A stretch of DNA of 64,000 nt from Flavobacteriales bacterium (GCA_965243605.1 CBDEVQ010000092.1:48208-112207); one strand, 5' to 3'; positions 6,408-35,654 are shown, numbered from the stretch's first letter. Notes: generated by a model not told the origin, from the sequence alone. Numbers and translations are program-made.

Positions 6408-6524
6408 TTAAGCGGCAATGTAAAATCCGGAGAAATAAATCTTTCAAACTTCCCAAGTGGACTGTATAGCATTCAATTTAAAGATGCCACTATGGTTAGA
6501 TCTATAAAATTTGTATTAAATTAA
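6408..6524 (+). pseudogene. Orphan 3' fragment of an array gene (last ~38 codons of the alpha-type CTD plus stop) at the left edge of the array
   Basis: It reads LSGNVKSGEINLSNFPSGLYSIQFKDATMVRSIKFVLN*. The canonical 17-nt spacer ttaacaattagagcgtt and the A1 ATG follow. No upstream coding part and no start codon are present. Confidence 0.85.
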
Positions 6525-6541
6525 TTAACAATTAGAGCGTT

Positions 6542-8461: not shown

Positions 8462-8478
8462 TTAACAATTAGAGCGTT

Positions 8479-10371: not shown

Positions 10372-10388
10372 TTAACAATTAGAGCGTT

Positions 10389-12269: not shown

Positions 12270-12286
12270 TTAACAATTAGAGCGTT

Positions 12287-14182: not shown

Positions 14183-14199
14183 TTAACAATTAGAGCGTT

Positions 14200-16113: not shown

Positions 16114-16126
16114 TAATTAAAACGTT

Positions 16127-18528: not shown

Positions 18529-21500
18529 ATGAAGATCAAAAAAGAACTCATTTTAATGCTATGTTTTGTAATGGGAAGTACCCACAGTATAGCACAAACC
18601 AGTACAACCTTATCCTACAATGGTAGTGATGAAGTGATTAAAAACCCTGAGCGCGGGTTAAGTTATAAAGCAGGGTATGTCGATTTATTTGTCGATGGGT
18701 ATTCTTATGATGGAGCTGTATCCTATCAATGGACTCATGAATTTCCTAACACAGCAAATACAACTCCACCAAGTTTTATTTCACGGTTTAGGAAAGATGC
18801 AGGAAATCACATACAAGAATTGCCAATTGGGTATCAATTTAAATCTACAGCACCTGATGGATTAATTACAGTGGATTCAGATTTAGATTTACCATTACAA
18901 GGGAATGATGAGTTACAAATTAGTTTTCCAAATCCTATGAATTCGAGTTATGATAATAGTTCTGATTTAGTGATAATTCATTATACAGATAATACAGCTA
19001 ACTCTAGAACAGTAAAATATAAAGCATTTCCAAGCGGAGTAGCAGGAAACTATAATGGGGGCTATGGGGATTTTGTTGCACCAGGTAATAATACTATATT
19101 TTCTAAAATAAACATTAGGAATATATCTGGTATTGGTGGACAAATTCAATCATTTTATGTTTTTCAAAATGATAATATTGCTGGTAATGCACCAATAGAA
19201 ATAGACATGAACGAACCGGTTATTTTAGAGTTAAGGTCGGATATCGAAGCATTTACGATAAACCACATAGACCGTTCAGGTGTTTTAGAAAATCGTATAG
19301 AATGTTCATCGCCACATATTGAACAAGCTGCTGACCAATTGAACAATTTTGAGGTTCGTACAGAGTTGTCATATAACCAAATACCTTTAGATATAAGTAC
19401 AGGAAGTTTAAGTACACCGTTTGGGAATCAGATAACGTATAACAACTCTAACCACAGCTTAAATATTACCGATGCTTTTTTTGATGCCCAAACCTATCAG
19501 CAAGCCAGTAATAACAATATTGAGTTAGACCAATGTTATATAGAAGAAAATGGTATCTCTTTAGTTGAACTTGAAGAGTATATTCATTTTTCAGAAGATA
19601 ATATTACGGCATCCTCGCCTCAATACCAATTAGAAACGGCAAGTGTTAATCGTACAAACAATGCGTTTAATCAAATTAAAAATCACGGATTAAAAGCCCA
19701 TCAGGTTACCAATTCAGATTTTAAGATGACGGCAAATAATCATATCTATAATGTGCCAGACGATGAACATTTCACGTATTTACAAAACATAATGGATGAA
19801 ACCAATACTGAAATCTATTCAGGTAATAATAGTCTTATCGCATTAAATACATTGGGGTGGATAAAAGACCAAGAAGATGCTAGTTTATATCGTCTTTCTC
19901 CAACATGGTTAAAAACATCAAAAGATAAGCATTACCTACATTCTGGTCAAGATGCATATTATGGTGAGTTTTTACCCAATGAAGAAAACACTCTACGTTC
20001 TAGCCACCAAAGGTCTTTATTTAGATACTCAGCAGCTGCATCTAACCCGAACTTTACAGGAAACGGATTTAACTCTAGTGGTATTGCAGCAGATGTAAAT
20101 ATTCAGCACTATCAGGAAACAGTCATGAAAAAAGTAAAAAACTATTTTCCTAATAAAAAAATGCTAACCGATATGGTTGTGGCATGGGAACATAAGTTTA
20201 CCTATCCACAAAACGGAGGAACCTATGACGATGCTGGAGAAGATGAGTTTGATGTAAACCCAAACCTTGGATATTACGATGATATGTTTGCCACAACCTA
20301 TGAGTATTTAGGAACTATTTGTGATGAACCACAATTTCATTCAGTTTCAACAGATTTTACATCTGATGGTAAAAAAGATTTATTCGTATTAGGAAAGTAT
20401 AGCGATAATTTTTGGATGCATGCTGATATGCCTTTATACTTTGACGATGCAACTTTTGGACAATCTTTTGGGGCAATGTCTAGCAACTGGACAAATAATG
20501 GACAGTTTGATTACGAAGCTCTTAAGGGAATGCTTACAGCATCGGATGAAGAGCAAAACCCATTTTTAGCAGCAAAAAAATTATTCCGTTTTAACTATAC
20601 CTCTTTTGATGTAACGTATAACAACTCAGAAACAATAGGGAAAAATATTTTTGAATTTGTAGAGCCAAACGGAAATGGAGCGATTGATAAATGGAAAAGC
20701 ACAGCAATAACACAGGCTGATGCTGATCAATACCAATTACCATATTCAACAGGATATTTTACACATGATAATAAATCGGTGTTCGATTATATTCGTGACC
20801 ATTTGGGGTATCGTTTAGAACTGCAGAACTTAGAAACAGAAATACAAGGAAATAATCTAACCGCAAAATTCCATATTCAAAATAAAGGATTTTCAGCACC
20901 TAAAAACCCAAGACAAATTTATGCGGTGCTTTTAGATGAGCAAGGACAACAAGTGCAACAACTACCTGTGAATATAGATGCTAATGAGTGGTTATCATGG
21001 ACAACCGATGCAAATTTAGATATTAAAAAAAATGATATAAACGGAACAAATTATACCGACTATACGTTAGAGGATGATTTTGACCCTATTAATTACAATA
21101 CCCATACAGTTCAAGCGACCTTTGATATGTCAGGTTTAACAACCTATGCTACATATTCTATAGCCTTATGGATGCCAGACCCCTCGGCAGATTTAAACAC
21201 TGCATCTAACCAAGTGGATTATGCTGTTAAATTAGCTAATAGACCAATTTCTATTGGTGCTCGTGGAGAAAATATTGTAGCGAGTTTTAAACGAGGTGTA
21301 AATCAAATGAATTTACCATCTAAATATATCTCTGCAAATACCTTAATAATCAATCAAAATGCTACATGGGCGTCTTTAATAGAACATAATAGAAATATTA
21401 CTATTCCTAATGGAAGAACACTTACCATTACCGGAACCCTTAAAATGCCGCAAGGCACAAAAATTCAAGTTCTAGAGGGAGGAAAACTAATTGTAAACGG

Positions 21501-23949
21501 AGGAACCATAACAAGTAATTGTGATGCGCCTTGGCTAGGGATAGATGTATTCGGTCATGAAGAGTTAAACCAAACTGCTGCCAGCGGACAAGGTGAAGTT
21601 GTACTCAAAAACAATGCCCGAATAGAATATGCTGTAGATGGTGTTGCCTTAATTGGGCATACTCAAAATGGAGACATTGCCTGGGGAACATCAGGAGGGA
21701 TTTTGTTAGCCGAAAACACAACCTTTTATAATTGTAGACGAGGTATAGAATTTATGGCATATACCAACTATAATACAACCTATACGCAAGAGCGAAGAAA
21801 TAAAGGCGTTATAAATAATTGTACGTTTCAATTTACCGATGCGTTTAATGACCTATATGGATACAATACCTATGGAGAACATTATATACCGGTAGGAATA
21901 AGCATGTGGGAAGTAGACCGTGTATTGGTAAAAGGATGTACATTTATTAATGAAATGTCAACCTTTAACACAAGCAATTATGTCCATAATAAATACGATG
22001 GTTATGGAATTATTAGCGTAGATGCTTCTCCATTTATACAACCTGTTTATCCACCTGGACCTATGCCTGGATCTGCTACTGATTGGAATAATTTTGAAGG
22101 ATTTGATATTGGAGTATATAAAGTTAATTTAAATGGTGGTACAAGCCCGATTAAAATTAAGGATAACGATTTTAGTGAAAATCGTGCAGGAATCTATATT
22201 GAAAATAGCCCTTTTGCAACGGTGGTGTTAAACGATATTAATGTGCCAAATTTAAACTTCGGATCAACAACCGAAGAAATAAATGCTGTAGGTTTGTATT
22301 TAACAGGAGCATCTAATTTTGAAGTGGAAGACAATACCTTTATCGGAAATGGCGCTTCATCTACCCACCATGATGGGGGATTGGTTATCGAAAACAGCTA
22401 TGCAACGGGCCCTCATAACGAAACCGTTTATAACAATGCATTTGATGATTTAGGATTTGGATTTTTAGCCTACGGCGAAAATGGAGATACCTATAACGAT
22501 AATGGCGTACCAACGTCTCGTGGATTAGAAATGGGATGTAATGATTTTGGACAAAATGATAACAATTATCAAGATTGGTATATCCATAATGGAGCATCTA
22601 TAAGCCCTGTACAAGGTTCAGGAAGTACACCAACAGGAAACCGTTTTTCAGATGACCCAATCACAACAGACAACCACGGACATATTTTTATTGGTGGTAC
22701 TTTTGAAATTACCGAGTATTTCCGTTTTGATCCCTATGAACATGACCCATCTGAATCTGATAATGCAAAAGTAGCCGTTACAAATACAGGGGCTTCATAC
22801 TCAGAAAGTCAAAGCTGTTCGTCTAACTTTGCATTAAGTGAGGATATTACCGAAGGAGATTTAAATAATCATTTTTCAGATCATGAACTTTTGAAATATA
22901 AACTATTTCAATTAAAAACGAGTTATAAAAACATTTTAAATGGAGGGGTTAAACCTGAAATTATGGATGTGTTACTGGATGCAAACAAAACCTCTCAAGA
23001 AGTAAGAGATGAACTTGTTAATGGGTCTCCCTATTTGGAAGATGAGGTATTAATTGCCGCCATTAAAAGAGAAATTCCACTAACCCAATGGCACTTAACC
23101 GAAATTTTGGTTTGGAATTCTCGATTAAGCAGGGCGGTTATGAGTGCTTTATATGAAGCTCAACCATTAACGCCATATCAATATAATTTGGTTGTAAATG
23201 CAGACAATGGTTCTCAACGATTATTGCTTGAAATGGATATTCACGAAAAACAAATGGAGTTAGCAAGATTAAAATCTGACCATGTGTTAAAAGCATGGAA
23301 TAATGAGGATATTAACTTCTATGATGAAGTGATTAAAGTCTATAACAATGAAGAAACCGAATTTGCTGTAGGGCAATGTATAGAGGCTGAATTGTCAAAT
23401 AAAAACTATACAGGAGCAACATCTCGATTAAATACCTTTATGGGGTCGAATTCAAATGCAGATTTTCAAACCTTTTATGATTTCAAGATTAACTTAAAAC
23501 AAAGTGGTCGTAATTGGTTTCAATTATCTGATAATGAATTAAGAACTTTAGATGATTTACAGGCAAGTAATAATTCGTTTATTGCTCCTAAAGTAGAAAA
23601 CATTAAACGTTTTATTAGTGGAGATAATCAAACCTTTACGCCATTACCAATAGACTTAACACAGCCACAAACTAAAAAAGCCTATGTTGGTAAACCATCA
23701 GATGAATCCTTTGAGAATATCCTTGAAGTGAAATATCTAAGTGGAGAACAAGCTCTAATGTTTATTAGTACAAAGCCTGGAGCGAGATTTACTATTGTAA
23801 ATGCACTTGGTCAGGTTGTAGAAACTGGAGAAATGGCAAATGCTGTTGAATACAAAGATGTATCTTACTTACAATCTGGAGTATATCATATCCGATTAAC
23901 CTCGGATGAAGTAAATAAAACACAACACGATAAATTTGTTGTTCGATAA
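18529..23949 (+). CDS. 1806-aa secreted protein between the two array blocks: glycoside-hydrolase-like N-terminal region (DUF4874/DUF4832-like), beta-helix region, T9SS CTD
   Basis: Signal peptide MKIKKELILMLCFVMGSTHSIAQ. NPERGL near the N-terminus, and later DHLGYRLELQNLETEIQGNNLTAKFHIQNKGFSAPKNPRQIYAVLLDE, which is DUF4832-like as I recall that family. PbH1-like coils follow (TLTITGTLKMPQGTKIQVLEGGKLIVNGGTITS...). The C-terminus is FTIVNALGQVVETGE...VSYLQSGVYHIRLTSDEVNKTQHDKFVVR. Confidence 0.8.
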   Translation: MKIKKELILMLCFVMGSTHSIAQTSTTLSYNGSDEVIKNPERGLSYKAGYVDLFVDGYSYDGAVSYQWTHEFPNTANTTPPSFISRFRKDAGNHIQELPIGYQFKSTAPDGLITVDSDLDLPLQGNDELQISFPNPMNSSYDNSSDLVIIHYTDNTANSRTVKYKAFPSGVAGNYNGGYGDFVAPGNNTIFSKINIRNISGIGGQIQSFYVFQNDNIAGNAPIEIDMNEPVILELRSDIEAFTINHIDRSGVLENRIECSSPHIEQAADQLNNFEVRTELSYNQIPLDISTGSLSTPFGNQITYNNSNHSLNITDAFFDAQTYQQASNNNIELDQCYIEENGISLVELEEYIHFSEDNITASSPQYQLETASVNRTNNAFNQIKNHGLKAHQVTNSDFKMTANNHIYNVPDDEHFTYLQNIMDETNTEIYSGNNSLIALNTLGWIKDQEDASLYRLSPTWLKTSKDKHYLHSGQDAYYGEFLPNEENTLRSSHQRSLFRYSAAASNPNFTGNGFNSSGIAADVNIQHYQETVMKKVKNYFPNKKMLTDMVVAWEHKFTYPQNGGTYDDAGEDEFDVNPNLGYYDDMFATTYEYLGTICDEPQFHSVSTDFTSDGKKDLFVLGKYSDNFWMHADMPLYFDDATFGQSFGAMSSNWTNNGQFDYEALKGMLTASDEEQNPFLAAKKLFRFNYTSFDVTYNNSETIGKNIFEFVEPNGNGAIDKWKSTAITQADADQYQLPYSTGYFTHDNKSVFDYIRDHLGYRLELQNLETEIQGNNLTAKFHIQNKGFSAPKNPRQIYAVLLDEQGQQVQQLPVNIDANEWLSWTTDANLDIKKNDINGTNYTDYTLEDDFDPINYNTHTVQATFDMSGLTTYATYSIALWMPDPSADLNTASNQVDYAVKLANRPISIGARGENIVASFKRGVNQMNLPSKYISANTLIINQNATWASLIEHNRNITIPNGRTLTITGTLKMPQGTKIQVLEGGKLIVNGGTITSNCDAPWLGIDVFGHEELNQTAASGQGEVVLKNNARIEYAVDGVALIGHTQNGDIAWGTSGGILLAENTTFYNCRRGIEFMAYTNYNTTYTQERRNKGVINNCTFQFTDAFNDLYGYNTYGEHYIPVGISMWEVDRVLVKGCTFINEMSTFNTSNYVHNKYDGYGIISVDASPFIQPVYPPGPMPGSATDWNNFEGFDIGVYKVNLNGGTSPIKIKDNDFSENRAGIYIENSPFATVVLNDINVPNLNFGSTTEEINAVGLYLTGASNFEVEDNTFIGNGASSTHHDGGLVIENSYATGPHNETVYNNAFDDLGFGFLAYGENGDTYNDNGVPTSRGLEMGCNDFGQNDNNYQDWYIHNGASISPVQGSGSTPTGNRFSDDPITTDNHGHIFIGGTFEITEYFRFDPYEHDPSESDNAKVAVTNTGASYSESQSCSSNFALSEDITEGDLNNHFSDHELLKYKLFQLKTSYKNILNGGVKPEIMDVLLDANKTSQEVRDELVNGSPYLEDEVLIAAIKREIPLTQWHLTEILVWNSRLSRAVMSALYEAQPLTPYQYNLVVNADNGSQRLLLEMDIHEKQMELARLKSDHVLKAWNNEDINFYDEVIKVYNNEETEFAVGQCIEAELSNKNYTGATSRLNTFMGSNSNADFQTFYDFKINLKQSGRNWFQLSDNELRTLDDLQASNNSFIAPKVENIKRFISGDNQTFTPLPIDLTQPQTKKAYVGKPSDESFENILEVKYLSGEQALMFISTKPGARFTIVNALGQVVETGEMANAVEYKDVSYLQSGVYHIRLTSDEVNKTQHDKFVVR

Positions 23950-23963
23950 AATGTGATTAACTT

Positions 23964-24010
23964 GTAAGCCCAAGGTGTTTAAAACCTTGGGCTTACCTAT
24001 TTATTTATAA
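23964..24010 (+). terminator. Rho-independent terminator after the 1806-aa gene
   Basis: GTAAGCCCAAGGT-gtttaaa-ACCTTGGGCTTAC gives a 13-bp perfect stem, followed by ctatttatttat. Confidence 0.75.
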
Positions 24011-24034
24011 AAATTATATTAAAAAGTAAACGCT

Positions 24035-25948
24035 ATGAAATACCTTAATGTGTATAATTTTATATATTGTTTGTTTTTTACGCTCACACTAACAGGGCAA
24101 ACTATTACGGTTCAGAATTTAGATGATTCAGGAATCGGTTCTCTGCGTGATGCTATTGATATAGCAAACTCAGGCGACACTATACGTTTTAATCCAATGT
24201 TACTATCGCAAGGGAGTGATACTTTAGTTCTAGATACTGTTATTAATATTGATAAGGATTTAGTAATAAAAGGGCTTTATGATGATGAGGATACTTTGTT
24301 TTTGTCTGCTATTGATGACCAGATGATGTTTTCTATAGATAGTGTTGAAAATATAGTTATGGATAGTTTGACTTTTGATATTGGCTCAATAAATACTTTT
24401 ACCAATTACGATTTCTTTTGGGTGCGAAATTCAAATATACAAATGTATAATTCAATGTTTTTAGGGTATAGAGATGAGGTTTTAACTTTTTGGCAATCAT
24501 CTTTAGAGATATTAAATTGTAAATTTACTAGTGGAAATAGTTTATTTCCGAGTTCTGTTATTATATTTTTAACAAATGGAGATGTGTCAAGACAGTTTAG
24601 AGTTGTTAATTCTGAGTTTAGATTTAATAATCCTCTTACTTCTGCAGTTATCATTAAAACAGGTGGCAATAAAAATAATAACCATATTTATTTTGAAAAT
24701 AATTATTTCTCTAATATAGGTACTTTAGTTTATGGTCATAATATGATTGATATTTTTAATAGCACCTATGAAAATGCTCATATACAAACAGGAGAGCCTT
24801 CTGTAGGATTTGCTTACATTAGAGACATTACATTAAATATAGAATCTTCAACTTTTACAATTAATGATGTTAATCAAGTACAAAACACCATTTTATGCAT
24901 AGGAACTCCTTATGGACCTATTGAGCCTGTTCCTCTAGATGTTCTTGAGTTAAATTTCACAAATTGTACGTTTAATGGAGGGATATATGTAGATACCGTT
25001 TATAATAACTTTTATGATAGTAATTATTTGGATTATTTCGGTCCAGATTTAGATGAGTTAAAAATAACAAGTTGTATTTTTAATGATATTAACGGATTTA
25101 ATGAATTACCTATAGACACTTCAGGTGGATATAATCTATTTAGTTTCCCTCAAAATATAGGTTTAGATTCTACAGACCAAGCTGATATTTTGGTTTCAGA
25201 TATTAATTTAGGATCATTACAAAACAACGGAGGGTCTACACCTACGCATTTACCAAGTTTTCAATCTTTAGCCTTTAACTCTGGTAATCCAAACGATACA
25301 AGCTCTGCTCAAAATGGGGATATTGTTCAACGTAGAGATATAGGAGCTGCTGAAATACAAGCTGTATTAACAGTTGATACTACAGAATACTGTGGAGAAA
25401 CTTATCAATGGAGAGAAGAAATACTGACGGAATCTAATATTCATTTTGACGTGCAAGAATCAACTACAGGAGGATATGATAGTGTTTTTGTTCTGGACTT
25501 AACTTTAGATTACATTGATGCTATTGCCATTAGTGATGGAGGGGAATTAAAAGCAAATATTTCTGATGCAACGTATCAGTGGATAGACTGCTCAACCAAT
25601 CAACCTTTATTCGGAGAAACGAATCAGGTTTTAACACCAAGTACAGAGGGAATCTATGCTGTTATTGTTTCAAGTTCTATTTGTACAGACACATCAAGTT
25701 GTGTGTATATTAATAATATAGGGTTAGAAGAGCAAGAGAAACACTTTGTATTTGTAAAAGATAAAATACTCTATTTAAATAATGTTAATAGCTATACCGA
25801 ATATAGTGTTTATAATAACTTAGGGCAAATCGTGTTTAAATTCAATACAGTAAAAAAACAACAGGATATAACTCATTTAAATTCAGGTGTGTATTTTATT
25901 GAGTTTAAAGATGAGAATATTCAACCAGTGAAATTTATTTTGGATTAA
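24035..25948 (+). CDS. Array copy B1, first gene of block B (signal b, core class IV, CTD beta)
   Basis: 637 aa. The signal MKYLNVYNFIYCLFFTLTLTGQ is unique to this copy. The core is essentially identical to B3. The CTD is ...YSVYNNLGQIVFKFNTVKKQQDITHLNSGVYFIEFKDENIQPVKFILD. Confidence 0.9.
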   Translation: MKYLNVYNFIYCLFFTLTLTGQTITVQNLDDSGIGSLRDAIDIANSGDTIRFNPMLLSQGSDTLVLDTVINIDKDLVIKGLYDDEDTLFLSAIDDQMMFSIDSVENIVMDSLTFDIGSINTFTNYDFFWVRNSNIQMYNSMFLGYRDEVLTFWQSSLEILNCKFTSGNSLFPSSVIIFLTNGDVSRQFRVVNSEFRFNNPLTSAVIIKTGGNKNNNHIYFENNYFSNIGTLVYGHNMIDIFNSTYENAHIQTGEPSVGFAYIRDITLNIESSTFTINDVNQVQNTILCIGTPYGPIEPVPLDVLELNFTNCTFNGGIYVDTVYNNFYDSNYLDYFGPDLDELKITSCIFNDINGFNELPIDTSGGYNLFSFPQNIGLDSTDQADILVSDINLGSLQNNGGSTPTHLPSFQSLAFNSGNPNDTSSAQNGDIVQRRDIGAAEIQAVLTVDTTEYCGETYQWREEILTESNIHFDVQESTTGGYDSVFVLDLTLDYIDAIAISDGGELKANISDATYQWIDCSTNQPLFGETNQVLTPSTEGIYAVIVSSSICTDTSSCVYINNIGLEEQEKHFVFVKDKILYLNNVNSYTEYSVYNNLGQIVFKFNTVKKQQDITHLNSGVYFIEFKDENIQPVKFILD

Positions 25949-25988
25949 CAACAACTATTCATTTTTAAATTATATAAACCTAAACCGT

Positions 25989-27872
25989 ATGACAAGGGTT
26001 ATTAAATCTATTAGTTTTATATGTTGTTTGTTTCTTACGCTCACACTAACAGGACAAACCATAACCGTTCAGAATTTAGACGATTCAGGAATAGGTTCTC
26101 TGCGTAATGCTATTTCTAATGCCAATTCAGGCGATACCATACGTTTTAATCCCATGTTAATTGCTCAAGGGAGTGATACTTTGGTACTAGATACAGTAAT
26201 AAATATTGATAAAGATTTAGTGATTAAAGGTATTTACGATAATCAAGATACTTTATTCATGTCGATAAAGAATGACAAGCTATTATTTGCTGTAGATTCT
26301 GTAAACGAAATAGTCTTTGATAGTTTAGTATTAATTTCCGATTCTAATTCAGTAATATACCCTTGGGGAACAAGTGCAATAGCTTTGAGTTATGTTAATT
26401 GTCAAATAAATAATTCATTATTTCTTGAGTTTACAAATAATCATATTTATTCGTGGGAATCCAATTTAAAAGTTAATAATTGTAATTTTTCTCATTATCA
26501 CCCTTATTCTAGTTTAATTTTTTTTGATACCTCAGGGGACTCAATTCAGAACTTGGAATTATCGAATGTAAATGTTAAGAGTTATACTAATCTAAGTTTT
26601 GGATTTGCTATGAGAACAGAAACATCAACTCAACTAGAAAAAATTAATATATTCTTTAAAAATTCTTATTTAAAGAATACAAAATCTTATTTTAATGGAA
26701 ATATAAACATTGATATTCTCAATAGTACTTTTGAAAATTCAATAATGGAATTAGGAGCTGAATATACTTCATCAGAAGCAACAGATTCAAAAATTATAGC
26801 AGAGATACAACAATCTACATTTACGGGAGATGTTAATGGAAATACTATTTTATGTTTAGAGCCTCAAACAACAACACCTCTTTTGATTGATTTTAAATTA
26901 AGATTGAATAATTGTACATTCAATGGAGGGAGTTATGATACAGAATCTTCCATTGATTATTTTGGAGAAAGTATAGATTCATTAAGTATAACAAGTTGCA
27001 TATTTAATGATATTAACGGATTTAACGAATTACCTATAGATTCATCAGGAGGATATAATCTATTTAGCTTTCCTCAAAGTATAGGCTTAGATTCTACAGA
27101 CCAAACCAATGTTTTGGTTTCAGATATTAATTTAGAACCACTACAAAACAACGGAGGATTTACACCTACGCATGTACCAAGTTATCAATCTTTAGCTTTT
27201 AACTCCGGTAATCCAAACGATACAAGTTTTGCTCAAAATGGAGCTATTATTCAACGTAGAGATATTGGAGCTGCTGAAATACAAGCTACTCTTACCATAG
27301 ACACTGTAGAGTATTGTGGAGAAGACTACGATTGGAGAAATGAAACACTTACGGAATCTAATATACACTTTGATGTTCAGGAATCTACCACAGGAGGATA
27401 TGATAGTGTTTTTGCTTTAGATTTAACCTTAGATTACATGGATGCTCTAGCCATTAGTGATGGGGGAGCCTTACAGGCCAATATTTCTGATGCAACATAC
27501 CAATGGATGGATTGTTTAACCCATTTACCATTGTTTGGCGAAACCAACCAAACCCTTACACCCAGTATAGCGGGAACCTATGCCGTTGTTGTTTCTAACG
27601 GAATTTGTACCGATACTTCGGCCTGTGTATTTATCGATAATTTGAGTGTGGAAGAGCAGGTGCAATCATTTGTATTTGTAAAGAATAATGTTTTGTATTT
27701 TAACGGGTTAGAAAATGCAGAGTTTAACATCTATAATAGCCTTGGGCAGAATGTTTTAAGCGGCAATGTAAAATTCGGAGAAATAAACCTTTCAAACTTC
27801 CCAAATGGACTGTATAGCATTCAATTTAAAAATGCCACTATGGTTAGATCTATAAAATTTGTATTAAATTAA
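25989..27872 (+). CDS. Array copy B2 (signal c, core class VI, unique and most divergent, CTD alpha)
   Basis: 627 aa. Signal MTRVIKSISFICCLFLTLTLTGQ, shared with B5. The core has no close partner in the window. DYFGESIDSLSITSCIFNDINGF is shared only with B6. Confidence 0.9.
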   Translation: MTRVIKSISFICCLFLTLTLTGQTITVQNLDDSGIGSLRNAISNANSGDTIRFNPMLIAQGSDTLVLDTVINIDKDLVIKGIYDNQDTLFMSIKNDKLLFAVDSVNEIVFDSLVLISDSNSVIYPWGTSAIALSYVNCQINNSLFLEFTNNHIYSWESNLKVNNCNFSHYHPYSSLIFFDTSGDSIQNLELSNVNVKSYTNLSFGFAMRTETSTQLEKINIFFKNSYLKNTKSYFNGNINIDILNSTFENSIMELGAEYTSSEATDSKIIAEIQQSTFTGDVNGNTILCLEPQTTTPLLIDFKLRLNNCTFNGGSYDTESSIDYFGESIDSLSITSCIFNDINGFNELPIDSSGGYNLFSFPQSIGLDSTDQTNVLVSDINLEPLQNNGGFTPTHVPSYQSLAFNSGNPNDTSFAQNGAIIQRRDIGAAEIQATLTIDTVEYCGEDYDWRNETLTESNIHFDVQESTTGGYDSVFALDLTLDYMDALAISDGGALQANISDATYQWMDCLTHLPLFGETNQTLTPSIAGTYAVVVSNGICTDTSACVFIDNLSVEEQVQSFVFVKNNVLYFNGLENAEFNIYNSLGQNVLSGNVKFGEINLSNFPNGLYSIQFKNATMVRSIKFVLN

Positions 27873-27885
27873 TAATTAAAACGTT

Positions 27886-29799
27886 ATGAGAATACTAACC
27901 ATATTAAGTTATTTATTTTGTTTATGTATTAGTTTTAATGGGAATAGCCAAACCATCACGGTTCAGAATTTAGACGATTCTGGGGTTGGCTCTTTACGTG
28001 ATGCTATTTCTAATGCCAATTCAGGCGATACTATACGTTTTAATCCAATGTTACTATCGCAAGGGAGTGATACTTTAGTTCTAGATACTGTTATTAATAT
28101 TGATAAGGATTTAGTAATAAAAGGGCTTTATGATGATGAGGATACTTTGTTTTTGTCTGCTATTGATGACCAGATGATGTTTTCTATAGATAGTGTTGAA
28201 AATATAGTTATGGATAGTTTGACTTTTGATATTGGCTCAATAAATACTTTTACCAATTACGATTTCTTTTGGGTGCGAAATTCAAATATACAAATGTATA
28301 ATTCAATGTTTTTAGGGTATAGAGATGAGGTTTTAACTTTTTGGCAATCATCTTTAGAGATATTAAATTGTAAATTTACTAGTGGAAATAGTTTATTTCC
28401 GAGTTCTGTTATTATATTTTTAACAAATGGAGATGTGTCAAGACAGTTTAGAGTTGTTAATTCTGAGTTTAGATTTAATAATCCTCTTACTTCTGCAGTT
28501 ATCATTAAAACAGGTGGCAATAAAAATAATAACCATATTTATTTTGAAAATAATTATTTCTCTAATATAGGTACTTTAGTTTATGGTCATAATATGATTG
28601 ATATTTTTAATAGCACCTATGAAAATGCTCATATACAAACAGGAGAGCCTTCTGTAGGATTTGCTTACATTAGAGACATTACATTAAATATAGAATCTTC
28701 AACTTTTACAATTAATGATGTTAATCAAGTACAAAACACCATTTTATGCATAGGAACGCCTTATGGACCTATTGAGCCTGTTCCTCTAGATGTTCTTGAG
28801 TTAAATTTCACAAATTGTACGTTTAATGGAGGGATATATGTAGATACCGTTTATAATAACTTTTATGATAGTAATTATTTGGATTATTTCGGTCCAGATT
28901 TAGATGAGTTAAAAATAACAAGTTGTATTTTTAATGATATTAACGGATTTAATGAATTACCTATAGACACTTCAGGTGGATATAATCTATTTAGCTTTCC
29001 TCAAAGTATAGGCTTAGATTCTACAGACCTAACCAATGTTTTGGTTTCAGATATTAATTTAGAACCACTACAAAACAACGGAGGATTTACACCTACGCAT
29101 GTACCAAGTTATCAATCTTTAGCTTTTAACTCCGGTAATCCAAACGATACAAGTTTTGCTCAAAATGGAGCTATTATTCAACGTAGAGATATTGGAGCTG
29201 CTGAAATACAAGCTACTCTTACCATAGACACTGTAGAGTATTGTGGAGAAGACTACGATTGGAGAAATGAAACACTTACGGAATCTAATATACACTTTGA
29301 TGTTCAGGAATCTACCACAGGAGGATATGATAGTGTTTTTGTTCTGGATTTAACTTTAGATTACATTGATGCTATAGCCATTAGCGATGGTGGAGCCTTA
29401 CAAGCCAATATTTCTGATGCAACATACCAATGGATGGATTGTTCAACCCATTTACCATTGTTTGGCGAAACCAACCAAACCTTTACACCCAGTATAGCGG
29501 GAACCTATGCGGTTGTTGTTTCCAATGGAATTTGTACCGATACTTCGGCCTGTGTATTTATCGATAATTTGAGTGTAGAAGAGCAGGTGCAATCCTTTGT
29601 ATTTGTAAAGAATCATGTTTTGTATTTTAACGGGTTAGAAAATGCAGAGTTTAACATCTATAATAGCCTTGGGCAGAATATTTTAAGCGGCAATGTAAAA
29701 TCCGGAGAAATAGACCTTTCAAACTTCCCAAGTGGACTGTATAGCATTCAATTTAAAGATGCCACTATGGTTAGATCTATAAAATTTGTATTAAATTAA
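27886..29799 (+). CDS. Array copy B3 (signal a, core class IV identical to B1, CTD alpha); a five-piece mosaic
   Basis: 637 aa. Going 5' to 3', it matches A6, then B1, then B2, then B4, then A2/A3 (see findings). Confidence 0.9.
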   Translation: MRILTILSYLFCLCISFNGNSQTITVQNLDDSGVGSLRDAISNANSGDTIRFNPMLLSQGSDTLVLDTVINIDKDLVIKGLYDDEDTLFLSAIDDQMMFSIDSVENIVMDSLTFDIGSINTFTNYDFFWVRNSNIQMYNSMFLGYRDEVLTFWQSSLEILNCKFTSGNSLFPSSVIIFLTNGDVSRQFRVVNSEFRFNNPLTSAVIIKTGGNKNNNHIYFENNYFSNIGTLVYGHNMIDIFNSTYENAHIQTGEPSVGFAYIRDITLNIESSTFTINDVNQVQNTILCIGTPYGPIEPVPLDVLELNFTNCTFNGGIYVDTVYNNFYDSNYLDYFGPDLDELKITSCIFNDINGFNELPIDTSGGYNLFSFPQSIGLDSTDLTNVLVSDINLEPLQNNGGFTPTHVPSYQSLAFNSGNPNDTSFAQNGAIIQRRDIGAAEIQATLTIDTVEYCGEDYDWRNETLTESNIHFDVQESTTGGYDSVFVLDLTLDYIDAIAISDGGALQANISDATYQWMDCSTHLPLFGETNQTFTPSIAGTYAVVVSNGICTDTSACVFIDNLSVEEQVQSFVFVKNHVLYFNGLENAEFNIYNSLGQNILSGNVKSGEIDLSNFPSGLYSIQFKDATMVRSIKFVLN

Positions 29800-29816
29800 T
29801 TAACAATTAGAGCGTT

Positions 29817-31712
29817 ATGAGAATACTAACCATATTAAGTTATTTATTTTATTTATGTATTAGTTTGAATGGGAATAGCCAAACCATCACGGTTCAGAAT
29901 TTAGACGATTCTGGGGTTGGCTCTTTACGTGATGCTATTTCTAATGCCAATTCAGGTGATACCATCCGTTTTAATCCCATGTTAATTGCTCAAGGGAGTG
30001 ATACTTTAGTATTAGATACAGTGATTAATATTGATAAAGATTTAGTGATAAAAGGGCTTTATGATGATGAGGATACGTTGTTTTTGTCTGTGTCAGACAA
30101 TCAGTCATTCTTCCTTGTTGATACTGTTGAAAGTTTTACACTTGATAGTCTAACTTTTATTTCAGATTCAATTTTCAATGCAAATATTGATTGTTTTAAG
30201 GTATTTGAATCTGGTTTATGCATTGAGAATTCTTCTTTTTTGGGTTTTAAAAAAAATGTATTGTTACTATATCAATCATCTCTTAGGTTTATTAATTCTA
30301 AAATTTTCACATATGATTATTTATCAATGTCTGGTGGAACCCCTCAATATATTTGGTGCTATACGGATGGAAATATCTTAAGAAATTTTGAAATTGTTTC
30401 TAGCGAAATTCAGGCTGGAAATTCAAACGGTTTATATATGACTCTCGGTGGTGTTCAAGACAGTAATAGTGTATTAATTAAAGATACTTATCTTTCTAAT
30501 TTTAGGAGTTGGTTGTTTGGTCATTTTAATTTAAAAATATTAAATAGTACCTTAGAAAACTCATATATTAATATCGGTCATCCTAATATTTCTGGAGGAA
30601 GTTTAGAAAGAAATGCTTTTATTTCGGCTAATGCTTCGACTTTTTCTTTAACTGATTTTGAAGATTTACAAAACCCTATTTCTTGTATCGGTTCACCAAC
30701 AAATCCCTTTGACCCACCTCCCTTAGATGTATTTGAATTACAGTTTGATAACTGTACATTTAATGGGGCTACATATGATAGTAGTTCATATGAAGATTAT
30801 TTCGGTCCCGATTTAGATGAACTAAAAATAACAAGTTGTATTTTTAATGATATTAATGGCTTTAATGAATTACCTATAGACTCATCTGGAGGATATAATC
30901 TATTTAGTTTTCCTCAAAGTATAGGTTTAGATTCTACAGACCAAGCTGATATTTCTGTTTCAGATATTAATTTAGAACCATTACAAAACAATGGAGGGTT
31001 TACGCCTACTCATGTACCAAATTATGAATCATTAGCCTTTAACTCAGGAAATCCAAACGATACAAGCTCTGCCCAAAACGGAGCTATTATTCAACGTAGA
31101 GATATAGGAGCTGCTGAAATACAAGCCGTACTTACTGTAGATACGACTGAATATTGTGGGGAATTTTACGATTGGAGAAATGAAACACTTACGGAATCTA
31201 ATATACACTTTGATGTTCAGGAATCTACCACAGGAGGATATGATAGTGTTTTTGTTCTGGATTTAACTTTAGATTACATTGATGCTATAGCCATTAGTGA
31301 TGGAGGGGAATTAAAAGCCAATATTTCTGATGCAAGCTATCAATGGATAGATTGTTCTACTAATCAACCTTTGTTTGGAGAAACAAATCAGGTTTTAACG
31401 CCAAATACAGAAGGAACCTATGCTGTTATTGTTTCAAGTTCTATTTGTACAGATACATCAAGTTGTGTGTATATTAATAATATAGGGTTAGAAGAGCAAG
31501 AGAAACGCTTTGTATTTGTAAAAGATAAAATACTCTATTTAAATAATGTTAATAGCTATACCGAATATAGTGTTTATAATAACTTAGGGCAAATCGTGTT
31601 TAAATTCAATACAGTAAAAAAACAACAGGATATAACTCATTTAAATTCAGGTGTGTATTTTATTGAGTTTAAAGATGAGAATATTCAACCAGTGAAATTT
31701 ATTTTGGATTAA
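29817..31712 (+). CDS. Array copy B4 (signal a, core class II, CTD beta)
   Basis: 631 aa. The core is homologous to A2. The CTD and the downstream junction are the same as in B1. Confidence 0.9.
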   Translation: MRILTILSYLFYLCISLNGNSQTITVQNLDDSGVGSLRDAISNANSGDTIRFNPMLIAQGSDTLVLDTVINIDKDLVIKGLYDDEDTLFLSVSDNQSFFLVDTVESFTLDSLTFISDSIFNANIDCFKVFESGLCIENSSFLGFKKNVLLLYQSSLRFINSKIFTYDYLSMSGGTPQYIWCYTDGNILRNFEIVSSEIQAGNSNGLYMTLGGVQDSNSVLIKDTYLSNFRSWLFGHFNLKILNSTLENSYINIGHPNISGGSLERNAFISANASTFSLTDFEDLQNPISCIGSPTNPFDPPPLDVFELQFDNCTFNGATYDSSSYEDYFGPDLDELKITSCIFNDINGFNELPIDSSGGYNLFSFPQSIGLDSTDQADISVSDINLEPLQNNGGFTPTHVPNYESLAFNSGNPNDTSSAQNGAIIQRRDIGAAEIQAVLTVDTTEYCGEFYDWRNETLTESNIHFDVQESTTGGYDSVFVLDLTLDYIDAIAISDGGELKANISDASYQWIDCSTNQPLFGETNQVLTPNTEGTYAVIVSSSICTDTSSCVYINNIGLEEQEKRFVFVKDKILYLNNVNSYTEYSVYNNLGQIVFKFNTVKKQQDITHLNSGVYFIEFKDENIQPVKFILD

Positions 31713-31752
31713 CAACAACTATTCATTTTTAAATTATATAAACCTAAACCGT

Positions 31753-33657
31753 ATGACAAGGGTTATTAAATCTATTAGTTTTATATGTTGTTTGTTTCTT
31801 ACGCTCACACTAACAGGACAAACCATAACCGTTCAGAATTTAGATGATTCCGGAACTGGTTCTTTACGTAATGCTATTTCTAATGCCAATTCAGGCGATA
31901 CTATACGTTTTAATCCCATGTTAATTGCTCAAGGGAGTGATACTTTGGTACTAGATACAGTAATAAATATTGATAAAGATTTGGTAATAAAAGGACTTTA
32001 TGATGAGGAAGATACTTTGTTTTTGTCTTCTTTGGAGAATAGAAGTATGTTTTCTATTGATACTGTAGATTATATATTACTTGATAGTCTTTGTTTAGTA
32101 GCTGATACAATCAGTTATAATAATAACTATACTATTAGTTTTGTTTATTCGGATGTTGTTGTTTCAAATTCTTTTTTTAAAGGATATAAAACAACTTTAT
32201 TATATGCTTGGCAATCTTCTTTGAATATTTATGGATGTAGTTTTTATAACGATATAAACACAAATGCATCAATTGTTTTTTTATCAAATGGAGACGAACT
32301 CAGAACTTTGAGTATTATTTCTAGCTTTTTGCAAAACAATAAGACAGGATATAATTTTGATATAAGATTAGCTGGTAATAAAAATAATAATAAAATTACT
32401 TTTGAAGATTCATATTTTAAAGATTCTAAAAGTTGGTTTTTTGGTCATCTATCTACTGACATAACATACTGTACATTTGAAAACTCTCCGTTAAGTTTTG
32501 GACATGAATCATTTGGCGGAGGAACCTTGGAAAGAGATATGACATTACTATGTCTCGGTTCAACATTTTTTATTTCAAATATTGATTATAGGCAAAACTC
32601 TTTCTCTTGTATAGGTACACCAACGAGCCCTTTTGCCCCTCCTCCTTCAGATTTTTTTGAATTACAGTTTAATAATTGTACTTTTAATGGAGGGGTTTAT
32701 ATAGATACAGCTTATGGAAATAATTACGATAGTAATTATTTGGACTACTTCGGACCAGATTTAGATGAGTTAAAAATAACGAGTTGTATTTTCAATGACA
32801 TCAACGGTTTTAATGAATTACCTATAGATTCATCAGGAGGATATAATCTATTTAGTTTTCCTCAAAGTATAGGCTTAGATTCTACAGACCAAGCAAATGT
32901 ATTGGTTTCAGATATTAATTTAGGACAATTACAAAACAACGGAGGATTTACACCAACACACTTACCAGGCTACGAATCTTTAGCGTTTAATGCAGGAAAC
33001 CCTAACGATACCAGTTCGGCTCAAAATGGGGAGATTATACAACGAAGAGATATTGGATCAGCTGAAATACAAGCTATACTTACTGTAGATACTACTGAAT
33101 ATTGTGGCGAATTTTATGATTGGAGAGGGCAAATGTTAACCGAATCAGCTATCTATTCAGATATAGAAGAATCTACAACAGGATTAGATAGTGTTTTTGC
33201 CATAGATTTAACCTTAGAGTATTTAGATGCCCTAGCCATTAGCGATGGAGGCGAATTAACAGCCAATAGTTCTGATGCGACCTACCAATGGATGGATTGT
33301 TCAACCCATTTACCATTGTTTGGTGAAACTAACCAAACCCTTACACCCAGTATAGCGGGAACCTATGCGGTTGTTGTTTCCAATGGAATTTGTACCGATA
33401 CTTCGGCCTGTGTATTTATCGATAATTTGAGTGTAGAAGAGCAGGTGCAATCCTTTGTATTTGTAAAGAATCATGTTTTGTATTTTAACGGGTTAGAAAA
33501 TGCAGAGTTTAACATCTATAATAGCCTTGGGCAGAATATTTTAAGCGGCAATGTAAAATCCGGAGAAATAGACCTTTCAAACTTCCCAAGTGGACTGTAT
33601 AGCATTCAATTTAAAGATGCCACTATGGTTAGATCTATAAAATTTGTATTAAATTAA
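31753..33657 (+). CDS. Array copy B5 (signal c, core class III, CTD alpha)
   Basis: 634 aa. The core is homologous to A3. The segment AILTVDTTEYCGEFYDWRGQMLTESAIYSDIE.STTGLDSVFAIDLTLEYLDALAISDGGELTANSSDATYQW is shared with A6. Confidence 0.9.
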   Translation: MTRVIKSISFICCLFLTLTLTGQTITVQNLDDSGTGSLRNAISNANSGDTIRFNPMLIAQGSDTLVLDTVINIDKDLVIKGLYDEEDTLFLSSLENRSMFSIDTVDYILLDSLCLVADTISYNNNYTISFVYSDVVVSNSFFKGYKTTLLYAWQSSLNIYGCSFYNDINTNASIVFLSNGDELRTLSIISSFLQNNKTGYNFDIRLAGNKNNNKITFEDSYFKDSKSWFFGHLSTDITYCTFENSPLSFGHESFGGGTLERDMTLLCLGSTFFISNIDYRQNSFSCIGTPTSPFAPPPSDFFELQFNNCTFNGGVYIDTAYGNNYDSNYLDYFGPDLDELKITSCIFNDINGFNELPIDSSGGYNLFSFPQSIGLDSTDQANVLVSDINLGQLQNNGGFTPTHLPGYESLAFNAGNPNDTSSAQNGEIIQRRDIGSAEIQAILTVDTTEYCGEFYDWRGQMLTESAIYSDIEESTTGLDSVFAIDLTLEYLDALAISDGGELTANSSDATYQWMDCSTHLPLFGETNQTLTPSIAGTYAVVVSNGICTDTSACVFIDNLSVEEQVQSFVFVKNHVLYFNGLENAEFNIYNSLGQNILSGNVKSGEIDLSNFPSGLYSIQFKDATMVRSIKFVLN

Positions 33658-33674
33658 TTAACAATTAGAGCGTT

Positions 33675-35588
33675 ATGAGAATACTAACCATATTAAGTTA
33701 TTTATTTTGTTTATGTATTAGTTTGAATGGGAATAGCCAAACCATCACGGTTCAGAATTTAGACGATTCTGGGGTTGGCTCTTTACGTGATGCTATTTCT
33801 AATGCCAATTCAGGTGATACCATCCGTTTTAATCCCATGTTAATTGCTCAAGGGAGTGATACTTTAGTATTAGATACAGTGATTAATATTGATAAAGATT
33901 TAGTGATAAATGGGCTTTATGATAGCGAGGATACCTTGTTTATGTCCTCTTTAGAGAATAGAAGAATGTTCCATTTTGATACTGTGGATTATATATTACT
34001 TGATAGCCTTTGTTTGTTAGCAGATACAACGAATGGTTTTAATAATACTATAATAAGTTTTGTTTATTCAGATGTAGTTGTTTCAAATTCTTTTTTTAAA
34101 GAATATAATAAAACTGTTTTAAATTCTTGGCAATCAAATTTAAACATAATAAATAGTTTAATTTCTAGTGATACTTTATATACATTTTATCCTTTAGTTT
34201 ATTCAACTCAAGGTGATACGTTAAGAAAACTAAAAATTATAAAGTCAAAGTTTTTAATAAAGGAAAAGAATACAGTTGGTATAGTAGTTAGAACAGCTGG
34301 AAATAAGGAGAATAATAAGGTGATTATTCAAGATTCATATTTTGAAAATTTTGAAACATTAATATATGGTCATAACACCATGGAGATTCAATATTCAACA
34401 TTTAATAATTCACTAATTAAAACGGGAGAGCCTTATGTGGGGTTTGCATATATTAGAGATATTACATTAACTGTAAAATCTTCAACCTTTGCAATTACAG
34501 ATTCTAATCAAGTCCAAAATACAATTTTATGTATAGGAACACCTTATGGACCTATTGAACCGGTTCCTTTAGATGTTCTTGAGTTAAATTTAACAAATTG
34601 TACGTTTAATGGCGGGATTTACGAAGACGTTATTTATGGAACTGGTTATGATAGTAATTATTTGGATTATTTTGGAGAAAGTATAGATTCATTAAGTATA
34701 ACAAGTTGCATATTTAATGATATTAACGGATTTAATGAATTACCTATAGACTCATCGGGAGGCTATAATCTATTTAGTTTTCCTCAAAATATAGGTTTAG
34801 ATTCTACAGACCAAGCCAGTGTTTTAATCTCTGATATTAATTTGGGATTACTACAAAACAATGGAGGATTTACTCCTACCCATCTACCAAACTATCAATC
34901 ATTAGCCTTTAACTCAGGTAATCCTAACGATACAAGTTTTGCTCAAAATGGAGCTATTATTCAACGTAGAGATATTGGAGCTGCTGAAATACAAGCTACT
35001 CTTACCATAGACACTGTAGAGTATTGTGGAGAAGACTACGATTGGAGAAATGAAACACTTACGGAATCTAATATACACTTTGATGTTCAGGAATCTACCA
35101 CAGGAGGATATGATAGTGTTTTTGTTCTGGATTTAACTTTAGATTACATGGATGCTATAGCCATTAGTGATGGAGGGGAATTAAAAGCTAATATTTCTGA
35201 TGCAACATACCAATGGATGGATTGTTTAACCCATTTACCATTGTTTGGCGAAACCAACCAAACCCTTACACCCAGTATAGCGGGAACCTATGCCGTTGTT
35301 GTTTCTAACGGAATTTGTACCGATACTTCGGCCTGTGTATTTATCGATAATTTGAGTGTGGAAGAGCAGGTGCAATCATTTGTATTTGTAAAGAATAATG
35401 TTTTGTATTTTAAAGGATTTAGTGAGGGTAAAATGGATTATATGATCTTTAATAATTTAGGACAACAGATACTGTACTCAAATACTTCACAGGAAGTACA
35501 AGATCTTTCCTATTTAGAATCAGGGGTTTATTTTATTGAATTTATGAGTAAACAGAATAGAAAGCCAATACAATTTATTATCAACTAA
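33675..35588 (+). CDS. Array copy B6, last gene of block B (signal a, chimeric core III/V, alpha-to-gamma-like hybrid CTD)
   Basis: 637 aa. The core starts like B5/A3 (SSLENRRMFHFDTVDYILLDSLCLLADT...SFVYSDVVVSNSFFK), then switches to the A6 segment. The CTD begins VQSFVFVKNNVLYF as in B2, then ends ...DLSYLESGVYFIEFMSKQNRKPIQFIIN. Confidence 0.9.
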   Translation: MRILTILSYLFCLCISLNGNSQTITVQNLDDSGVGSLRDAISNANSGDTIRFNPMLIAQGSDTLVLDTVINIDKDLVINGLYDSEDTLFMSSLENRRMFHFDTVDYILLDSLCLLADTTNGFNNTIISFVYSDVVVSNSFFKEYNKTVLNSWQSNLNIINSLISSDTLYTFYPLVYSTQGDTLRKLKIIKSKFLIKEKNTVGIVVRTAGNKENNKVIIQDSYFENFETLIYGHNTMEIQYSTFNNSLIKTGEPYVGFAYIRDITLTVKSSTFAITDSNQVQNTILCIGTPYGPIEPVPLDVLELNLTNCTFNGGIYEDVIYGTGYDSNYLDYFGESIDSLSITSCIFNDINGFNELPIDSSGGYNLFSFPQNIGLDSTDQASVLISDINLGLLQNNGGFTPTHLPNYQSLAFNSGNPNDTSFAQNGAIIQRRDIGAAEIQATLTIDTVEYCGEDYDWRNETLTESNIHFDVQESTTGGYDSVFVLDLTLDYMDAIAISDGGELKANISDATYQWMDCLTHLPLFGETNQTLTPSIAGTYAVVVSNGICTDTSACVFIDNLSVEEQVQSFVFVKNNVLYFKGFSEGKMDYMIFNNLGQQILYSNTSQEVQDLSYLESGVYFIEFMSKQNRKPIQFIIN

Positions 35589-35618
35589 TCCACCCGGTAG
35601 AATATATTTAAAAAATTC

Positions 35619-35642
35619 ATAAAGGATATATTTGTCCGTTAT
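35619..35642. promoter_or_regulatory. Candidate Rrf2/NsrR operator upstream of the regulator gene
   Basis: ATAAAGGAT-atattt-GTCCGTTAT is an imperfect inverted repeat with the same left half-site and 6-nt spacing as the site at 36131. It overlaps a TATATTTG box at 35627..35634. Confidence 0.4.
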
Positions 35643-35654
35643 TAAAATTGATTA

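Follow-up and report, generated by a model that had tools for sequence, protein, structure and literature searches.

Intergenic junctions as probable seams of two recombining tandem arrays of predicted beta-helix surface-protein genes in a Flavobacteriales bacterium

The window analysed here is one strand of 64,000 nt from an uncultured Flavobacteriales bacterium (GCA_965243605.1 CBDEVQ010000092.1:48208-112207). Its open reading frames (ORFs) and their translations showed two tandem arrays of 6 + 6 paralogous genes, all on the same strand and each encoding 626-639 amino acids (aa). An earlier note on this sequence had pointed out that three types of intergenic spacer recur at non-adjacent positions in both arrays. 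Our results suggest that these junctions are probably the seams of two recombining six-gene arrays of old paralogues, coding for beta-helix proteins exported through a type IX secretion system (T9SS), which swap pieces by homologous recombination. The genes of both blocks were called as ORFs with matches above cutoff to the NCBIfam choice_anch_Q and T9SS type A C-terminal domain (CTD) models, and are laid out as follows.

6542..18040, plus strand: block A, genes G1-G6
G1 6542-8461, G2 8479-10371, G3 10389-12269, plus strand: first half of block A
G4 12287-14182, G5 14200-16113, G6 16127-18040, plus strand: second half of block A
24035..35588, plus strand: block B, genes G7-G12
G7 24035-25948, G8 25989-27872, G9 27886-29799, plus strand: first half of block B
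G10 29817-31712, G11 31753-33657, G12 33675-35588, plus strand: second half of block B

In order, the genes are separated by spacers of 17, 17, 17, 17 and 13 nt in block A and of 40, 13, 17, 40 and 17 nt in block B. An exact-string search placed the 17-nt type 1 spacer at 6525, 8462, 10372, 12270, 14183, 29800 and 33658, the 13-nt type 2 spacer at 16114 and 27873 and the 40-nt type 3 spacer at 25949 and 31713. These are exactly the 11 coordinates listed in the earlier note, and the search returned no further copy of any of the three types in the window. All 12 reading frames are intact, each copy with a start codon, a putative signal peptide and a CTD. The type of CTD tail is linked to the signal type of the following gene at 10/10 internal junctions, alpha with signal a and beta with signal c, which indicates that a junction is one tail-spacer-head module and that breakpoints lie inside genes. 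The modules of types 3 and 2 map to the following positions.

25744..26080, plus strand: type 3 junction module, copy 1, with the G7 beta-type CTD tail, the spacer at 25949-25988, and signal c and the first mature residues of G8
31508..31844, plus strand: type 3 junction module, copy 2, with the G10 tail, the 40-nt spacer at 31713-31752 and the G11 head
16017..16272, plus strand: type 2 junction module of block A, with the G5 alpha-type tail, the 13-nt spacer at 16114-16126 and the G6 head
27776..28031, plus strand: type 2 junction module of block B, with the G8 tail, the 13-nt spacer at 27873-27885 and the G9 head

The two type 3 copies are identical at 337/337 positions, as had been reported, and form a maximal exact match that cannot be extended by one base. 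This tract comprises 205 nt from the end of G7 or G10, the spacer of 40 nt and 92 nt from the start of G8 or G11, and it lies within a shared segment of ~1.2 kb (25035-26235). A mismatch map of this segment showed ~10% third-codon-position divergence over 25045-25743, then the 337 bp without any difference, then low divergence to ~26240, beyond which the cores are unrelated. This is what a recent conversion or duplication would be expected to leave within a shared segment of greater age. The type 2 tract of ~260 bp (16013-16272 versus 27772-28031) had been credited with one mismatch and actually has two, at 16016 and 16166, leaving exact runs at 16017-16165 (149 bp) and 16167-16272 (106 bp). 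That it links block A to block B stands, through these 149- and 106-bp matches and through other long tracts shared by the two blocks as well.

We also clustered junction-centred 600-bp windows, an analysis that the earlier note had asked for. The type 3 pair stood apart as claimed (95% mutual identity, at most 71% to every other junction), but the type 2 pair did not, being 93% identical and at this scale no closer to each other than to a tight type 1 group. This group is formed by the junctions upstream of G3, G4, G5, G10 and G12 (94-96% over 600 bp, the left 300 nt 100% identical), and the remaining type 1 junctions, upstream of G1 and G2, are looser, at 78-87% to that group. Private alignment columns number 7 for the type 2 pair versus 187 for the type 3 pair. 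By these comparisons type 2 is a minor variant of type 1, and type 3 a deeply separate lineage.

Away from the junctions the genes are mosaics. Mean pairwise nucleotide identity in the 12-gene alignment was 86-91% over nt 61-240, 48-69% over nt ~300-1020 and 83-90% over nt 1021-1740. A variable cassette at ~nt 256-1020 is present in every copy, with an identity of 48-69% versus 83-91% in the flanks, and was delimited in G8 from identity and entropy profiles together with the strands of an AlphaFold2 (AF2) model.

26244..26954, plus strand: hypervariable core of G8, aa 86-322, the central rungs of the predicted beta-helix

When the genes were painted in 90-nt windows at a threshold of at least 97% identity, each was found to have its own core, except that G7 and G9 share one, while heads, C-terminal halves (C-halves) and CTDs fell into a few types that are combined differently gene by gene. 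Counted at 95% identity, the 12 genes contain 3 types of signal, 7 of the N-conserved segment, 11 of the core, 10 and 7 of parts a and b of the C-half, and 5 of the CTD. The mean proportions of synonymous and nonsynonymous differences (pS/pN) were 0.36/0.033 in the N-conserved segment, 0.57/0.36 in the core and 0.43/0.074 in the C-half. The conserved regions around the tracts that had first drawn attention differ at 10-15% of sites (pS 0.36-0.43), and this high synonymous divergence indicates that the paralogues are not young. Low pN relative to pS in the flanks, corresponding to a ratio of nonsynonymous to synonymous rates (dN/dS) of ~0.07-0.12, further indicates that the flanks are kept mainly by purifying selection on the protein. 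By the same comparison the core is under relaxed constraint, much weaker than in the flanks (dN/dS ~0.43, dS near saturation).

In a self-comparison of the window, 345 maximal exact matches reached a length of 30 bp or more, and the 337-bp tract ranks only 11th among them by length. The longest match and the one duplicated core are given below.

9505..10456, plus strand: longest identical tract, 952 bp, identical to 11403-12354
24179..25143, plus strand: G7 core duplicated in G9, matching 28030-28994, exact over 728 + 236 bp with a single mismatch between

The 952-bp tract consists of the G2 C-half, the type 1 spacer and the G3 head, which recur as the G3 C-half, spacer and G4 head. The G7 and G9 cores have a pS of 0.01, the C-halves of G4 and G5 share exact matches of 486 + 338 bp, and several exact tracts of 372-492 bp connect the two blocks over distances of 17-23 kb. 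Formal tests gave a strong signal of recombination. The pairwise homoplasy index (PHI) lay far below the permutation mean when computed on the whole alignment (z=-78), and in none of five segments did any permutation reach the observed value (0/500), so that the hypothesis of no recombination is rejected in every segment. A Sawyer-type longest-run permutation test, applied to ten units phased on the junctions (each a C-half, a spacer and the head that follows), returned 9 pairs with global p<=0.001, among them the type 3 pair with a run of 198 concordant polymorphic sites; for the type 2 pair the run was 99 sites (pairwise p=0.0002). Against the 10-15% divergence of the surrounding regions, the matches of both pairs are not due to chance. 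Distance matrices showed that nearest neighbours change from segment to segment. The Mantel correlation between the core and any flank segment was -0.16 to 0.07, and ~0 between the signal and the CTD of one gene, and adjacent segments gave 0.53 (signal/N-conserved), 0.51 (C-half a/b) and 0.54 (C-half b/CTD). The earlier note had proposed that junctions, cores and C-terminal halves assort independently. This is borne out for the cores by the PHI result, by Mantel correlations near zero and by the long identical tracts that link the two blocks, but not for adjacent segments (r ~0.5) and not for junctions, in view of the complete linkage of tail and signal.

We propose that homologous recombination between conserved stretches, one of ~190 nt in the N-terminal part and one of ~700 nt in the C-terminal half, would move the pieces through unequal crossing-over and gene conversion, inside an array, from one array to the other over 17-23 kb, and apparently from strain to strain as well. 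Breakpoints would fall inside genes, and the CTD tail, the spacer and the next signal peptide would move together as a junction module, so that the same module recurs at non-adjacent positions beside unrelated cores. Types 1 and 2 would then represent an alpha-tail to signal-a module and its minor variant, and type 3 a separate beta-tail to signal-c module whose spacer probably stems from the leader of a gene that once stood first in its array and has since lost the terminator hairpin. The 5' edges of the two blocks contain the following features.

123..6008, plus strand: PKD/CUB/GEVED T9SS-CTD protein of 1961 aa (Pfam), preceding block A
6409..6541, plus strand: truncated unit bordering block A on its 5' side, aligning locally to G1 nt 1805-1937 with 3 mismatches
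18529..23949, plus strand: DUF4832 / T9SS-CTD protein of 1806 aa (Pfam), preceding block B, the syntenic anchor in the related loci L001, L021 and L023
23964..23996, plus strand: intrinsic-terminator-like hairpin with a 13-bp stem, between the DUF4832 gene and G7, kept in relatives

The truncated unit (133 nt) is the sole gene fragment at the arrays. Of an alpha-type CTD tail it retains the final 116 nt (reading ...SGNVKSGEINLSNFPSGLYSIQFKDATMVRSIKFVLN and then stop), followed by the 17-nt type 1 spacer, and it ends directly before the G1 start codon; the interval 6441-6636 matches the G9/G10 junction exactly over 196 bp. The type 3 spacer and signal c are homologous to the leader of the array-initial gene of L023, minus the 43-nt terminator hairpin after DUF4832. 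Together, the truncated unit and this leader homology support growth of the arrays by recombination with intragenic breakpoints. The hairpin at 23964-23996 is the sole strong terminator-like site in 23000-36400, and the type 3 spacer also matches the leader region around it once the hairpin is taken out. The arrays have no terminator-like sites inside them, in keeping with co-transcription.

Close relatives of the window genes were found in the protein database on four other contigs, and three of the loci could be read. The species-representative collection and JGI metagenomes contained only relatives at 26-52% identity, in metagenome-assembled genomes (MAGs) of Flavobacteriales and other Bacteroidota. 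Downstream of block B the window shares synteny with L001 and L021/L022 (Rrf2, ScdA, NorB, P-type ATPase and onward), which carry a single family gene each between DUF4832 and Rrf2 as against six in the window; L023 has one family gene behind DUF4832 in a different upstream context. Copy number at the same locus therefore appears to differ, 1 versus 6. Core types differ as well. L001b and L021, which come from almost identical strains judging by their flanks (98-100% identical) and neighbour genes (pS 0.01-0.035), have cores that are only 52-83% identical. L021 combines a G7-like head, a core 97-100% identical to that of G4 over nt 296-715 (pS 0.076), a C-half 78-90% identical to any window copy and a G12-like CTD. 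L023 joins a c-type head to a G6-type core (pS 0.065), the protein P0011 has a G11-type core (94% aa identity), and P0012 has a core unlike that of any window copy. Since the assemblies of the relatives are independent of that of the window, they support the reassortment of cores and flanks.

We considered a recent horizontal transfer of the core between L021 and G4, in view of the 97-100% identity of the core versus 83-90% in the flanks, and rejected it: the core pS of 0.076 is only modestly below that of the neighbouring housekeeping genes between the window and L021 (0.08-0.20). With core and housekeeping pS so close, the simpler reading is that the cores are orthologous and long-lived and that the flanks have been exchanged among paralogues.

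A second family gene in L001, L001a, is equivalent to the end of block A and has a G6-like CTD. Ahead of it, at L001 1-196, lies the CTD tail of another DUF4832-like gene, followed by the same terminator hairpin and leader as upstream of G7, which indicates that a 'DUF4832 + beta-helix gene' module is duplicated in L001; block A of the window follows the PKD/CUB/GEVED protein instead. The DUF4832 gene itself differs between the window (18529-23949) and L001 (2472-7895) with a pS of 0.41 and a pN of 0.068. This pS is well above the housekeeping values of 0.08-0.20 between the window and L021, the near-identical sister strain of L001, and suggests that the DUF4832 gene may also be a fast-evolving or paralogue-exchanging surface-protein gene. 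At a greater distance, the Flavobacteriales MAG ME_XS_2208_bin_25 has six divergent family members on both strands of L006 3945-21766, with 30-50% aa identity, and all six carry the motif T[IV]TV.N..DSG.GSLR...GDTIRF in the conserved N-terminal part. The family is also matched by three other short contigs from this MAG. Clustering, and assembly fragmentation at such loci, appear to be typical of the family.

The array proteins are recognised by two NCBIfam models, choice-of-anchor Q (NF041518; at aa ~380-440, with 29.1-31.6 bits versus a cutoff of 25) and T9SS type A CTD (TIGR04183; 27.3-31.9 bits versus a cutoff of 23, in G1, G7 and G8), while the Pfam model PF18962 (Por_Secre_tail) is borderline at 21-27 bits versus 27. 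N-termini are hydrophobic in 12/12 copies, and a helix at residues 2-19 of the AF2 model was taken as a putative signal peptide. The array products are probably T9SS-secreted, cell-surface proteins. Several other CTD-bearing proteins are encoded in the window, and the scans saw no core T9SS gene among the window ORFs examined. The AF2 model was computed for G8 from a 39-sequence alignment, with a pLDDT of 78.6. It predicts a stack of short regular strands (24-340), a low-confidence linker (412-436), immunoglobulin-like sandwiches (437-550) and the CTD (560-627). The top Foldseek matches in the PDB were phage tailspikes, PL6 and pectate lyases, GH110 and the RgpB CTD (5ag8), and they point to a right-handed parallel beta-helix in which the first two rungs are nearly invariant and the central rungs (aa ~90-320) hypervariable. 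G1, G7 and G8 gave no PF02415 (Chlamydia_PMP) match at E<=0.01 and no Pfam Beta_helix match, but distant homologues do carry matches to PF02415 or PF13229 (Beta_helix). Pfam and NCBIfam scans found no leucine-rich repeat (LRR) family in the array proteins. The wider family, with beta-helix and choice-of-anchor Q, comprises 327 clusters at 50% identity with E<=1e-30, and the close relatives of the window genes all fall in one such cluster.

The CTDs at the array ends call for a separate remark. The last genes of the two arrays, G6 and G12, have a CTD type in common (57% identity) that differs from the alpha and beta types found internally. Edge copies appear to escape homogenisation. The G6 CTD (17800-18040) also resembles that of the unrelated DUF4832 protein (23700-23949), with 45% identity over 53 aa and the common pattern ...SGVY[YH]IRL[IT]SD.VN....KF....

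Several points weigh against an interpretation in terms of recombining arrays of surface-exposed binding proteins. The main caveat is that gene order and core-flank linkage rest on a single assembly, which runs across exact repeats as long as 952 bp. For the relatives, the single-copy state is read from short-read metagenome contigs, in which collapse of an array or path-switching could have occurred, although one relative protein was recovered identically by two assembly pipelines (L021, L022), which counters the worry about collapse. The likeness of the model to beta-helix enzymes is weak (E 1e-4 to 1e-2, TM-score ~0.3), and both surface location and a binding role are read here from sequence and predicted fold. 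Positive selection on the core is not demonstrable, with pairwise dN/dS of ~0.3-0.55 and dS near saturation.

The first of these points leads to an alternative that we regard as unlikely, namely that the arrays are real but that repeat mis-joining, or consensus polishing with multi-mapped reads, gave rise to the sequence in which cores and junctions follow each other or to the perfect identity of the tracts, so that the assortment seen within the window would not be biological. In favour of this, the exact repeats (337-952 bp) are longer than usual short-read k-mers and insert sizes, any mosaic boundary must fall within a tract that is shared, and only one assembly of the contig is on record. 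However, independent assemblies show like mosaics (the G4-type core of L021/L022, the core swap between L001b and L021, and the G6-type core with c-type head of L023). Moreover, on the mismatch map the edges of the tracts grade into third-codon-position divergence, as for real conversion tracts, and the intact state of 12/12 reading frames likewise speaks against an artefact. The copy-number and core-type differences of the relatives carry the same assembly caveat.

A segmental duplication of a 5764-bp three-gene unit (G7-G8-G9 to G10-G11-G12), with the type 3 recurrence as its remnant, seems very unlikely. The offset of 5764 is the second-highest self-match peak in block B, and a three-gene period of that length had been suggested for this block. 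Yet only ~1.2 of the 5.76 kb (25035-26235) aligns at this offset, and the period has to be abandoned. The core pN values of the pairs that such a duplication would have made (G7/G10 0.40, G8/G11 0.45, G9/G12 0.30) are at background level, and the best core matches cross periods and blocks (G7=G9, G6~G12, G5~G7).

Programmed variation is also highly improbable, be it by an expression site with silent cassettes, by an invertase or shufflon, or by a diversity-generating retroelement. Silent-cassette variation of the pilE/pilS, vlsE and msp2 type combines one expression site with truncated, promoterless donor cassettes. The arrays do present a hypervariable cassette between conserved arms, and cores differ between near-identical strains. 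But all 12 copies are full length and none is a silent cassette, the only fragment being the 133-nt tail remnant; no meaningful inverted repeats lie in or around the arrays; and the window ORFs examined include no recombinase or reverse transcriptase save an IS3-type transposase 22 kb away, nor was one met in the gene tables of the relatives. The complete copies and the lack of these elements leave silent-cassette, shufflon and retroelement mechanisms without support. Core differences also amount to divergence of the whole segment, synonymous sites included, rather than targeted mutagenesis. There is thus no evidence in the window of silent cassettes or of switching at a single expression site, and all copies look expressible.

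Least credible of all is serial tandem duplication and divergence without exchange between copies, which would fit the tandem same-strand layout and the frequent closeness of adjacent copies in the C-half (G2/G3, G4/G5) but is refuted by the incongruence of segments, given significant PHI and Sawyer tests, nearest neighbours that differ by segment, and identical tracts that connect genes not next to each other, and also the two blocks, with cores in between at pS of 0.5-0.6. Taken together, the observation in the earlier note holds and most of its reading stands, with mosaic arrays and freely assorting cores; full independence of the parts and the three-gene period do not stand, and type 2 ranks as a variant of type 1.

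If homologous recombination between paralogues is indeed at work, its consequence would be a strain-specific and quickly reshuffled repertoire of beta-helix binding surfaces, for adhesion or glycan recognition, possibly under phage or grazer pressure, in which the invariant ends would be kept for secretion, anchoring and folding. More tentatively, we speculate that the conserved ends could serve as built-in recombination arms round an exchangeable core cassette, and that discrete, long-lived core types could circulate among paralogues, arrays, and strains or species. Core types number at least 12 (11 in the window plus new ones in P0008 and P0012). If this were correct, each strain would possess a different and rapidly changeable repertoire of T9SS-displayed binding surfaces, with 1-6 genes per locus, and the arrays would be a beta-helix counterpart of LRR arrays, with pressure from phages or grazers, or glycan specificity, as a possible driving force.

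Among known systems, an array of LRR genes comes closest. In Flavobacterium psychrophilum a cell-surface locus contains up to 19 tandem LRR genes with a conserved signal peptide and T9SS signal (Duchaud 2007 and Castillo 2015, analysed in PMC10392669). Copy number and content there are strain-specific despite conserved flanking genes, and signatures of recombination are extensive (PMC10392669). Common to both systems are tandem solenoid paralogues with conserved ends, a hypervariable putative binding region and recombination. The window proteins differ in being built from a beta-helix and choice-of-anchor Q rather than LRRs, and they vary by whole-core cassette at a near-constant length of 626-639 aa, whereas in F. 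psychrophilum it is the number of repeat units that varies. The window has clean spacers of 13-40 nt and one gene fragment, in contrast to the many fragments joined at microhomologies in F. psychrophilum, and, unlike at that locus, its two arrays exchange sequence across 17-23 kb.

A second T9SS example is provided by the gingipain and HagA cargo proteins of Porphyromonas gingivalis, in which discrete variants of conserved domains are mosaic among strains and unrelated to genome phylogeny (PMC5266723), a pattern attributed to domain rearrangement and allelic exchange (PMC5266723). Those genes are dispersed and have repeated adhesin domains, whereas the window has six-gene tandem arrays, and the cleaved adhesin domains are unrelated to the window beta-helix. 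Among beta-helical surface proteins, the chlamydial Pmp family (PF02415) consists of clustered paralogues with variable passenger regions. Pmp proteins are exported via an autotransporter barrel, whereas the window proteins have a predicted T9SS CTD and no PF02415 match. Ectopic recombination between paralogues is also a feature of the surface-protein families opa in Neisseria and msp2 in Anaplasma. Among yeast FLO adhesins it has given chimeric alleles (PMC3512402). Like families of the FLO, opa and msp2 type, the window genes have conserved ends on either side of a variable middle.

Recombining tandem families of surface proteins are therefore already known, and the beta-helix/choice-of-anchor Q family is one that has not been described before. 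Literature searches found no paper on this family (choice-of-anchor Q; T9SS with gene conversion) and nothing relevant for beta-helix, T9SS and tandem; for Bacteroidota, the F. psychrophilum LRR locus was the only well-described tandem T9SS example found. Recombining surface-protein arrays are a main bacterial route to vary exposure to phages, grazers, hosts and substrates, and here the same evolutionary logic is met in a different, widespread but uncharacterised cargo family. Its modular structure is unusually clean, with invariant arms, a cassette-like core and linked tail-spacer-signal junctions. Because such loci are prone to collapse and mis-joining in metagenome assemblies, copy number and linkage need long-read confirmation.

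Regulatory scans of the window yielded little. Sigma-70-like promoter matches in the junction scans were at shuffle level (109 versus 106.5; 67 versus 75.8) and are uninformative either way. The Bacteroidetes -7 motif TAnnTTTG occurs 22 times versus 23 expected and at none of the junctions, and Rfam at the gathering threshold found no structured RNA in the window. A 116-bp tandem repeat (2.5 copies, 95% identity) lies at 18098-18387 between G6 and the DUF4832 gene, and is present at the same place in the relative L001 (2155-2328) with 1.5 copies. It has no further copies in the window or the related loci and no Rfam match, and its predicted fold is modest at -22 kcal/mol.

Directly downstream of block B, at 35648-39252, is a conserved nitrosative-stress cluster, syntenic in L001 and L021, that consists of a regulator of the Rrf2 family, an iron-sulfur repair protein (ScdA/hemerythrin) and a nitric-oxide reductase of the NorB type. 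An IS3-family transposase (rve, HTH_21) is encoded at 57816-58682, ~22 kb downstream of block B, with no link to the arrays seen. A Porph_ging / CarboxypepD_reg / OMP beta-barrel trio (47492-51046) has two further large genes downstream of it at 51173-57475, coding for 1200 aa (weak Beta_helix match) and 897 aa (no family), which may represent additional surface or secreted proteins.

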